Below are positions 7,417 through 35,403 of a stretch of DNA of 37,986 bases, one piece after another (position 1 is the stretch's first letter; the number at the start of each line of letters is the position of its first letter). The notes below the pieces were generated by a model, which did not search any database, was not told the origin of the DNA, and saw only the letters and a program-made list of their open reading frames with translations. Where the stretch lies: NCBI GenBank assembly GCA_964558645.1, contig CAZLEV010000026.1:1-37986 (forward strand), given 5' to 3'. Both the position numbers and the translations under genes were made by a program. The stretch comes from an uncultured archaeon. GTDB lineage: Archaea; Asgardarchaeota; Thorarchaeia; Thorarchaeales; Thorarchaeaceae.

Positions 7417-7519
7417 GACAATCTCCTTCAATCAAGACGATCAGAATACTTCTCAACCTTCGACTCTTCCAGAGTGCTAAAGTAGTTTCCTGTAAGAGAG
7501 AGAAGCGTTTGCTTCTACA

Positions 7520-7560
7520 AAAAGAGATGGCGGTGCTTACGTTGCTTCCAACGCAAGCAC
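7520..7560 (-). terminator. 12-bp hairpin plus pyrimidine/U tract ending the microprotein operon
   Basis: Minus strand GTGCTTGCGTTG-GAAG-CAACGTAAGCAC (7560-7533) followed by CGCCATCTCTTTTT. Confidence 0.5.
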
Positions 7561-7626
7561 TTCTTCACACGAGGGGTTCTTGTTGCCTTGGGAGGAGATA
7601 TCATTGTCCTGAGGCTGCGAGGTCAT
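7537..7626 (-). CDS. Putative microprotein 3 (29 aa, MTSQPQDNDISSQGNKNPSCEEVLALEAT)
   Basis: AGGAG SD overlapping the end of ORF2. Heavily overlapped by RNA stems, so it may be non-coding. Confidence 0.35.
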   Translation of the reverse strand: MTSQPQDNDISSQGNKNPSCEEVLALEAT

Positions 7627-7632
7627 AACAGA

Positions 7633-7716
7633 CTATCTCCTAAAGTATGAGTATGCAACAGCCTCAGTGGAAACGGGAAACTTCATTGTCTTCGTCTTGT
7701 CCTTAACGAGTGCCAT
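7633..7716 (-). CDS. Microprotein 2 (27 aa, MALVKDKTKTMKFPVSTEAVAYSYFRR)
   Basis: GAGGTGA SD 7 nt before the ATG. Paralogous to microprotein 1. Confidence 0.7.
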   Translation of the reverse strand: MALVKDKTKTMKFPVSTEAVAYSYFRR

Positions 7717-7723
7717 GATTGAT

Positions 7724-7825
7724 TCACCTCAGAATGGTGTAGTATGCGTAACCAATGGCTTGGGTAGACTGAATGGTCTTGTTCTTCTTCGCGGAATCAG
7801 TTCGGTTGTTGATTGTTAGAGCCAT
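7724..7825 (-). CDS. Microprotein 1 (33 aa, MALTINNRTDSAKKNKTIQSTQAIGYAYYTILR)
   Basis: TATA box 31 nt upstream. Shares MAL, KxKT and ST.A..Y.Y motifs with microprotein 2. Confidence 0.7.
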   Translation of the reverse strand: MALTINNRTDSAKKNKTIQSTQAIGYAYYTILR

Positions 7826-7856
7826 GATGTTTCACAAGGAATACTGGGTAGAATGA

Positions 7857-7911
7857 GTATATAATGCGAAGCCACAATGGAGGGTCACACAATGAAGTCA
7901 CAATCTGTGAC
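7857..7911 (-). promoter_or_regulatory. TATA box plus candidate operator for the microprotein operon
   Basis: TTATATAC at 7864-7857. CACAAT at 7873, 7888 and 7899. Palindrome GTCACA-atc-TGTGAC at 7897-7911. Confidence 0.5.
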
Positions 7912-8086: not shown

Positions 8087-8776
8087 TTATCTTGCAGATC
8101 GTGCGACTCGCTCGCGTTCGTCCTTTCGGGAGATCGCGTAGCTTGAAGGGTCTGCGTTATACGCGAGAAGCAGTTCATCAACGATGCATTGCTCGACAGG
8201 TTTTGCACTCTTATGGGCAGCCCGTATGGCGCCCACCGAGAGATACCTCAGGGCTATGTCAATTCTGCGCTGCGGAGCGACATCGACTGAGCGGGGATAC
8301 GCCATTCCGCCGTAGGAAATACGGGTTGTTTCCTCTGCTGGAGCCGCGTTCTCTACTGCGGTCACCAAGACCTGCATAGGATTCAGGCCGGTTCTATAGT
8401 CGATGATTTCGAAAGCCCGTCGAAGGAAAGATATCATGCGGAGTTTCTTGCCAGCACCACGACCGGTACGTGTCTTCTTCTCCTTTCGTTTTCCGGCATT
8501 CATAAGTTTGTTAACAAAGCGCTCTACGATAGGAACTCTAGATTTGTGAAATCTGCTTCGAGCGTGTCTTCCAGATGTATGAGGAATCAGAACAGGCTTA
8601 AGTGAAATGTAACGTTCAAGGCCAATGTCCTTAATCTCCACCCTTGATGGATCCCACTTACCGAATAGAAGAAGATCTGGTGTTTCTTCGGGTTGAATAG
8701 CCTCAGGTGGTTGACCGCCTTCGGGTTGTTCCTGCTCTCCTTCCACATCATTGTCGACGATTTTTTCTTCAGACAT
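8087..8776 (-). CDS. rps7: 30S ribosomal protein uS7
   Basis: LFGKW, PHT.GRH, NP.QVLV.AVENAAP.EETTRI.YGG and ERVARSAR. Acidic N-terminal extension. AGGTGG SD before ATG 8776. Confidence 0.97.
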   Translation of the reverse strand: MSEEKIVDNDVEGEQEQPEGGQPPEAIQPEETPDLLLFGKWDPSRVEIKDIGLERYISLKPVLIPHTSGRHARSRFHKSRVPIVERFVNKLMNAGKRKEKKTRTGRGAGKKLRMISFLRRAFEIIDYRTGLNPMQVLVTAVENAAPAEETTRISYGGMAYPRSVDVAPQRRIDIALRYLSVGAIRAAHKSAKPVEQCIVDELLLAYNADPSSYAISRKDERERVARSAR

Positions 8777-8785
8777 CGTGACCAC

Positions 8786-18011: not shown

Positions 18012-18119
18012 GCCCCTGTAGTGTAGTTCGGCCTAGCATCCGAGACTGTCAAGCTTTGACGCTTGATGTCTTGGAGCAGACCTCTCGGGACCCGGGTTCG
18101 AATCCCGGCGGGGGCGCCA
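18012..18119 (+). tRNA. tRNA-Asp(GTC) with a 30-nt intron at 37/38 (18052-18081)
   Basis: GCCCCTG/CGGGGGC-G-CCA acceptor stem, CGAGA/TCTCG anticodon stem. Relaxed BHB: CTGT:GCAG helix with CA|A and AC|C bulges. Confidence 0.93.
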
Positions 18120-35300: not shown

Positions 35301-35403
35301 GGGCGCGTAGTCTAGAGGATAAGGCGCTTGCCTTCGGTGGGCCTTCTTTCGATGGTCCGAAGTAAGCAAGATGTCCCAGGTTCGAATCCTGGCGCGCCCG
35401 CCA
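35301..35403 (+). tRNA. tRNA-Arg(TCG) with a 27-nt intron at 37/38 (35338-35364)
   Basis: GGGCGCG/CGCGCCC-G-CCA acceptor stem. Canonical BHB: CTTC:GAAG helix, GG|T and TA|A bulges, GGGCC:GGTCC outer helix. Confidence 0.95.

Follow-up and report, generated by a model that had tools for sequence, protein, structure and literature searches.

A three-microprotein operon behind rps7 belongs to a cassette family of Thorarchaeaceae that shares a promoter switch with an MFS transporter gene

Behind rps7, on the minus strand of a 37,986-nucleotide stretch of Thorarchaeaceae DNA (the window, by which we mean the whole stretch that was analyzed), we found a self-contained operon of three microproteins at positions 7911 to 7518. 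Every element of a full cassette is present there, namely a promoter switch, basic Y-motif peptides, an acidic peptide with a VLALEAT tail, a hairpin, and a T-tract, and these elements align with cassettes from at least 10 genera. On sequence grounds, we regard the existence of the operon, its translation, and its membership in a regulon as solid. As a whole explanation, we tentatively favor, as plausible though still short of probable, a switch-controlled operon producing trans-acting, leaderless peptides that would be handled by a co-regulated MFS transporter, and we hypothesize a role of these peptides in export or signaling.

Layout of the operon and its terminator hairpin

The window is archaeal and contains a minus-strand rpoB-rpoA'-rpoA''-L30e-NusA-S12-S7 operon as well as intron-bearing tRNAs. 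The first-pass annotation, made from the DNA letters, had proposed a hidden microprotein operon behind rps7, and the TATA box, repeats, ORFs, SD sequences, and hairpin with T-tract were all found where it had placed them (Table 1). The operon also behaves as the independently regulated unit that had been proposed, with an operator/TATA switch of its own, coupled ORFs, and its own terminator. No SD was found ahead of ORF A in its short leader. The SDs of ORF B and ORF C each overlap the end of the preceding ORF, and such stop/SD overlaps between successive ORFs recur in other cassettes. Downstream of the cassette, on the same strand, lies a flavodoxin gene without an obvious promoter.

Table 1. 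Coordinates of the features in the window and of related features elsewhere (G000, the window's genome; C, contig; L, extracted locus)
Feature	Position	Strand	Remark
15-bp palindromic operator GTCACA-N3-TGTGAC, upstream element of the switch	7897..7911	-	Conserved in at least 10 genera (promoter alignment)
Two direct TGTG(A/G)C half-site repeats, 13-bp spacing, between palindrome and TATA box	7889-7882, 7877-7871	-	Sequence and promoter alignment
Weak non-consensus BRE, then perfect TATA box (7865-7858)	7856..7872	-	Promoter alignment
Short conserved 5' leader with a further TTGTGAA half-site	7826..7838	-	Promoter alignment
ORF A (ORF1), peptide A, 33 aa	7724..7825	-	Charge +3.5
SD of ORF B	7724..7730	-	Overlaps last Arg codon and stop of ORF A
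ORF B (ORF2), peptide B, 27 aa	7633..7716	-	Charge +3.5
SD of ORF C	7635..7642	-	Made of the two terminal Arg codons and stop of ORF B
ORF C (ORF3), peptide C, 29 aa, acidic	7537..7626	-	Charge -4.5
12-bp hairpin, 4-nt loop	7533..7560	-	Centroid -19.4 kcal/mol; overlaps last seven codons and stop of ORF C
T-tract, archaeal termination signal	7518..7526	-	A few bases past the hairpin
rps7, upstream of the cassette	8785-8087	-	Pfam Ribosomal_S7, E 8e-36
N-terminal extension of the S7 protein	8620-8785	-	
tRNA gene	18012-18116	+	
tRNA gene	35301-35400	+	
Further cassettes in G000	C10:113003, C8:57087, C2:276587, C2:356400		Degenerate one on C1
Switch at the MFS transporter promoter, G000	C1:135824		E 2e-10
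Inverted pair in the MFS leader	G000 C1:135980-136020		MFS loci L095-L109
Shorter switch form before the bactofilin-domain gene, G000	C9:53664		E 0.09
HTH_45 gene before the bactofilin-linked switch	C9:53334-53648, within L093 (G000 C9:53334-55006)		
RRE(PqqD)-rSAM-SPASM enzyme, G000, outside the window	C1:76803-78224 = L077:4804-6225	-	
Second promoter type	L078:6880-6930 (G000 C2), L095, L101, L114, L072		Regulator-linked cassettes and some MFS genes
Tandem paralogous gene pair	L078:8507-9349 (G000 C2:358506-359348)		

Two features of the surrounding window were recorded in passing. The S7 protein has an acidic, Glu/Pro-rich N-terminal extension of about 55 residues before its Pfam domain, and two tRNA genes that were detected by Rfam and not by ARAGORN probably contain introns because they are 100 to 105 nt long.

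The 3' hairpin is the only robust structure of the transcript, which as a whole is not unusually structured (z -0.55). In an alignment of 20 cassettes, 90% of the hairpin cells were paired compared to at most 47% in slid-partner controls, and three pairs showed compensatory changes. For example, a Leu-to-Trp change (UUG to UGG) is matched by a synonymous Ala change, and the third base of a Leu codon covaries with the middle base of the ORF C stop codon, which lies in the 3' arm. Two hairpin pairs are broken by synonymous changes, in eight sequences each, and selection on the protein therefore also acts on the C tail. The operon provides a clean example of dual coding, with terminal Arg codons forming the next SD and a peptide tail situated inside a terminator hairpin; in such overlaps, conservation can be mistaken for being purely at the protein level or purely at the RNA level.

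Conservation of the peptides and distribution of the cassettes

Peptide A has an N-terminal MAL-x-x-NNRT sequence and a C-terminal S-T-x-A-hydrophobic-x-Y-x-Y motif. Peptide B is a paralog of A with the C-terminal end Y-F-R-R, and both consist of a disordered Lys/Asn/Thr-rich body followed by a short C-terminal amphipathic helix. Peptides of the A/B type are conserved at both termini and variable in the middle. Within their motif, S-T-x-A is conserved as strongly as Tyr, Y-to-F changes are tolerated at both Tyr positions, and many ORF2 (B)-type peptides have H, Q, D, E, or L in place of the first Tyr of Y-x-Y. Peptide C combines a variable Ser/Asp-rich body with a C-terminal tail, (E/D)-V-L-A-L-E-A-T, that is invariant. 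The peptides are hydrophilic (GRAVY of -0.3 to -0.9; mean charge of +4.0 and mean GRAVY of -0.72 for the cationic peptides), and no signal or transmembrane segment was found in them. An AlphaFold model of a B-C read-through contained two short helices (pLDDT 66, pTM 0.25; predicted helix of 11 residues) and no confident contact between B and C.

Entropies at codon positions 1, 2, and 3 were 0.87, 0.58, and 1.63 for the shared A/B motif (36 distinct DNAs) and 0.24, 0.16, and 1.03 for the C tail. The invariant Ala of the A/B motif occurs in all four codons, and its Ser alternates between TCN and AGC. In orthologous pairs, pN/pS was below 1 and mostly 0.2 to 0.5. At lengths from 29 to 40 aa, ORF C invariably has an open frame behind its SD (at least 14 distinct cassettes), and a six-frame scan of the 3.63-Mb genome from which the window comes confined both the A/B motif and the C tail to cassettes. 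These entropies, ratios, open frames, and cassette-only motifs therefore indicate that all three peptides are maintained as proteins, in agreement with the paralogy of ORF1 and ORF2 and the peptide-level selection that the first-pass annotation had read from the two sequences and had suggested checking by dN/dS. For ORF3, that annotation correctly recorded the ORF and its SD and missed its conservation: ORF C looks unconserved among the paralogs of this one genome, but comparison across genera revealed a constant, invariant C-terminal tail and a peptide that is acidic throughout.

We detected no match to any of the three peptides in profile searches of Pfam, NCBIfam, ESM Atlas, and PDB, and our literature searches did not find a description of the family. 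Mimicry of a larger protein by a microProtein was rejected, since no long ORF in the genome contains the motifs. A PIP box, HbYX, the PqqA E-x3-Y motif, MIM, and N-glycosylation sequons were each compared by eye with the peptide alignments and dropped due to failures of position or conservation.

The window's genome contains at least five cassettes, and the searched family genomes yielded from 1 to 12 peptide matches each. When the family was sampled with 24 genomes, a Y-peptide profile matched 23 of them; with 80 genomes, it matched 69. Sixteen genomes from outside the family gave no convincing match. The peptide C profile matched 44 of 76 family genomes, and the 224 other genomes of Asgard archaea yielded none. 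Among 1.84 billion representative proteins, a profile search gave 35 matches, approximately 33 of which were true, consisting of peptides of the same kind with 29 to 59 aa and one 103-aa call; two others were repeat proteins. The conservation of the ORFs and their motif in relatives, for which a six-frame motif search had been proposed, is thus well supported. Given these matches and the confinement of the motif and the ORF C tail to cassettes, the cassette is far beyond chance. Few lineage-specific features of the Thorarchaeaceae are more widespread than this family, which is often multicopy, and genes of such size are missed by annotation.

Neighbor clustering of 6 cassettes from the window's genome and about 40 foreign ones revealed syntenic slots in many genera: after polX, in the rps7-flavodoxin interval, and beside a regulator gene. 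The rps7-flavodoxin slot of the window is also occupied at four other loci (L035, L040, L050, and L069), and cassette loci do not vary between relatives. Apart from these synteny groups, the clustering yielded just generic hydrolase or ABC families. Because cassettes occupy shared slots across genera, they are vertically inherited and not mobile, and the family, judged by its distribution, is old and specific to the Thorarchaeaceae. Several MAG contigs end inside cassettes (G005:C37, C48, C50, and C51; G022:C73 and C127; G020:C173), which is expected because cassettes are repeats, and copy numbers in draft genomes are therefore underestimated.

Switch-linked transporter and regulator genes

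A promoter HMM built from 16 cassettes and run on the window's genome recovered the switch at four cassettes and in the promoter of a gene for a 483-aa MFS transporter (C1:136039-137487), and a shorter form of the switch was found before a bactofilin-domain (bactofilin-like) gene. In five genomes (G005, G020, G188, G007, and G237), the switch is followed by one or two Y-peptide ORFs and then by the MFS gene. A TATA box, one Y-peptide ORF, and the MFS gene are arranged in this order in G016 and G018, where the palindrome was not detected; diverged peptide ORFs precede the MFS gene in G003 and G012; and the MFS switch occurs without a recognizable peptide in G000 (the window's genome), G010, G008, and G014. 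The MFS-linked operons do not contain peptide C. Among 80 genomes, 63 had both peptides and the MFS gene, 6 had peptides only, 4 had the MFS gene only, and 7 had neither, giving an odds ratio of 18 (nominal p of 1.3e-4) in which the double-negative genomes fall into two clades; peptides and MFS were lost together in what amounts to only two or three events.

Switch-linked MFS genes of at least nine genomes have a conserved inverted pair in the 5' leader, GGTCAC and GTGACC separated by about 25 nt, with the same half-site as the switch. An Rfam search of the MFS leaders gave no match. This pair may represent either an RNA hairpin or another operator. At the bactofilin-linked locus, a gene for a 104-aa HTH_45 winged-helix protein ends 16 nt before the switch, and this protein is a candidate switch regulator.

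A second regulator link concerns a sister cassette. A PH1932-like wHTH gene (PDB 1uly, E 1e-4; C2:357394-358140 in G000) divergently adjoins this cassette in 17 of 25 genomes from 11 genera, and its product contains no TPR domain; the window's own cassette has no adjacent gene of this type. Also in this syntenic block are a gene for an OPT oligopeptide transporter and another MFS gene. The promoter of this regulator- and OPT-linked cassette differs from that of the window's cassette, peptide variants far outnumber regulator paralogs in each genome, and the neighbors of this cassette may represent plain synteny. We observed a second conserved promoter type, with GCAAACC followed by TTTATAT and a GTTTG...CAAAC inverted repeat. 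Orthologous genes can differ in which of the two promoter types they carry, as with the MFS gene of G000 and that of G001. Flanked by the regulator gene on one side and the OPT transporter gene on the other are two tandem paralogous genes of 123 to 126 aa without a Pfam match, whose products look profilin-like by eye.

Functional explanations and comparison with known systems

In the explanation that we favor, an activator would bind the GTGAC repeats upstream of the weak BRE and turn on all cassette copies together, and the peptides would act in trans, unmodified and leaderless. Most likely, they would serve the co-regulated MFS transporter as substrates or partners and be exported as signaling or competition peptides. 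Acidic peptide C would be produced in stoichiometric amounts and might partner A and B, the basic pair, in the cytoplasm, and the PH1932-like regulator by the sister cassette and the nearby OPT importer could close a signaling loop. The stop/SD overlaps and the complementary net charges (+3.5, +3.5, and -4.5) count for this explanation, and the links to a transporter and a regulator give some support to signaling peptides acting in trans. Counting against this explanation are the hydrophilic nature of the peptides, their lack of a signal or transmembrane segment, and the lack of a confident B-C contact. In addition, peptides of 30 residues are rarely transported by MFS pumps, and competition peptides are not usually inherited vertically at fixed loci over long periods. 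A complete cell-to-cell signaling or competition system, in which leaderless peptides made by many co-switched cassettes would be exported by the MFS transporter, a C-terminal fragment re-imported by OPT, and the fragment sensed by the PH1932-like regulator, is unlikely in our estimation. If true, Asgard archaea would gain their first described communication circuit based on ribosomal peptides. Thorarchaeota are close archaeal relatives of eukaryotes, and the cassette family may show how Asgard archaea communicate or compete via peptides.

Alternatively, A, B, and C may be intracellular stress microproteins that remain cytoplasmic, perhaps as a basic/acidic hetero-complex, and whose helices would modulate a common target (the MFS pump, the regulator, or the bactofilin-like protein, for example); the peptides would then be outputs of a stress regulon. 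We consider this possible, if somewhat doubtful. Because the peptides are hydrophilic and no confident B-C contact was predicted, an intracellular stress role appears nearly as likely as export by the MFS transporter. The absence of an export signal, the stoichiometrically coupled production of peptides with complementary charges, the vertical inheritance of the loci, and a regulon that includes an efflux-type MFS and a bactofilin-domain gene are all consistent with it, and the same helix motif in all paralogs suggests one conserved partner. However, a single partner would not require many diverged copies, the model gave no confident B-C contact, the small transporter modulators known so far are helices in the membrane, unlike these peptides, and the peptide-peptide-MFS operons fit a cargo role equally well.

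Another possibility is that the ORFs act in cis as leader or arrest peptides, with translation into the terminator hairpin tuning read-through into the downstream gene or, at other loci, expression of the MFS gene. The stop codon of ORF C is in the 3' arm, so that a terminating ribosome must melt the hairpin, Y-peptide ORFs lie ahead of the MFS gene in several genera, and the window's flavodoxin gene, for which no promoter is obvious, comes next on the same strand. Yet the genes downstream vary among paralogous cassettes and are often on the opposite strand, the transcript is not unusually structured, and a T-tract alone suffices for archaeal termination. A leader attenuator is followed on the same transcript by a constant regulated gene, whereas each cassette ends with its own hairpin and T-tract. 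We therefore find a cis-acting role improbable, and the Tyr-sensing leader peptides suggested by the first-pass annotation are unlikely given these terminators, the unrelated downstream genes, an S-T-x-A conserved as strongly as Tyr, and a peptide conservation that far exceeds the needs of a Tyr sensor.

The main idea of the same annotation was that the peptides could be aromatic-crosslinked RiPP precursors, with a leader and an aromatic Y-x-Y core on which a P450 or radical-SAM/SPASM enzyme would act in trans. In favor of it, the peptides are short and multicopy and contain an aromatic motif, and the window's genome encodes one orphan RRE(PqqD)-rSAM-SPASM enzyme without an NCBIfam equivalog. 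Orthologs of this enzyme (71 to 96% identity) occur in 18 of 24 relatives, but their distribution does not follow that of the cassettes. The ortholog and any PqqD match above the cutoff are absent in G008, G012, G014, G015, G020, and G023, of which G008, G014, G020, and G023 have full cassettes (completeness of 97% for G014 and 98% for G012), and the enzyme is present in the cassette-less G004. We rejected it as the maturase based on this mismatch. The other SPASM gene of the genome adjoins a sulfatase gene and was set aside as a sulfatase maturase by context. Neighbor inspection for radical-SAM/SPASM or peptidase genes, as the annotation had advised, uncovered no maturase, protease, or exporter recurring next to roughly 50 cassette loci (20 genomes), where the recurrent neighbors reflect synteny. 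Conserved ends around a variable middle are also the reverse of a leader/core pattern. Since the enzyme distribution is mismatched, no maturase, protease, or exporter recurs as a neighbor, and the first Tyr is dispensable in B, we disfavor RiPP precursors as highly improbable. The orphan enzyme itself has 473 aa, and no precursor peptide was evident beside its gene.

Hardly credible is a toxin-antitoxin-like module with basic peptides as toxins, the acidic peptide as the antidote, and autoregulation via the palindrome, which the basic/acidic set, coupled ORFs, multicopy cassettes, and palindromic operator might suggest, because type II modules have recognizable folds and mobile or variable loci, whereas these loci are syntenic across genera, not mobile, and invariant between relatives, the peptides of 27 to 33 aa have no DNA-binding or toxin fold and no Pfam or NCBIfam match, and peptide C is missing from MFS-linked operons.

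Returning to the trans-acting, transporter-handled peptides that we favor, several known systems offer partial parallels. Pheromone cassettes of the RRNPP type in Bacillota (Rgg/SHP and ComR/ComS) have a small unannotated peptide gene divergent to the gene of a cytoplasmic regulator. Their precursors are basic toward the N terminus and aromatic or hydrophobic toward the C terminus, and the circuit includes a dedicated exporter together with an importer of oligopeptides. By analogy, the sister cassette has a peptide gene divergent to a regulator gene, precursors with a basic N terminus and an aromatic C terminus, and transporter candidates. In contrast, the candidate regulator is a PH1932-like winged-helix protein rather than a TPR receptor, the candidate exporter is MFS rather than PptAB or Sec, the candidate importer is OPT rather than Opp, and two to four peptides per operon plus an acidic partner are present in many copies per genome of an archaeal host.

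Operons of leaderless bacteriocins and PSMs, such as aureocin A70, garvicin KS, enterocin L50, and psm-alpha with Pmt, likewise resemble the cassettes in having two to four tandem coupled ORFs of 20 to 45 aa, cationic products without a leader, and tight regulation, and PSM peptide genes are also chromosomal. These peptides are hydrophobic or amphipathic and membrane-active, whereas the cationic cassette peptides are hydrophilic, and database searches found no homology between them. Bacteriocin and PSM operons include a dedicated ABC transporter and no acidic third peptide; in the cassette regulon, it is an MFS transporter that shares the switch and is operonic with the peptides in several genera, with a putative role for the peptides as cargo. 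Small-protein modulators of transporters (AcrZ of AcrB, MgtS, and KdpF) are also tiny proteins co-regulated with or encoded beside a transporter. They are single transmembrane helices, unlike the cassette peptides, which are soluble and charged, occur in multiple copies, and are for the most part encoded at a distance from the transporter gene.

The cassette promoter resembles the Pyrococcus furiosus promoters activated by TFB-RF1 (PF1088), which have a palindrome, a weak BRE, and a good TATA box and drive a transporter (PMC5937170). In both, the palindrome has a 6-1-6 layout and precedes the BRE and TATA box, and both regulons include an efflux-type transporter and are probably not expressed under standard conditions (PMC5937170). 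The half-site is TCTGAA in TFB-RF1 promoters and TCACAA in cassettes, and the transporter is ABC in the TFB-RF1 regulon and MFS in the cassette regulon (PMC5937170). Unlike TFB-RF1 promoters, cassettes carry additional half-site repeats, both in the palindrome-TATA interval and in the leader. The likeness is one of mechanism rather than a demonstrated homology, and with putative activator sites upstream of a weak BRE, the cassettes offer a compact, testable system for gene regulation in Asgard archaea.
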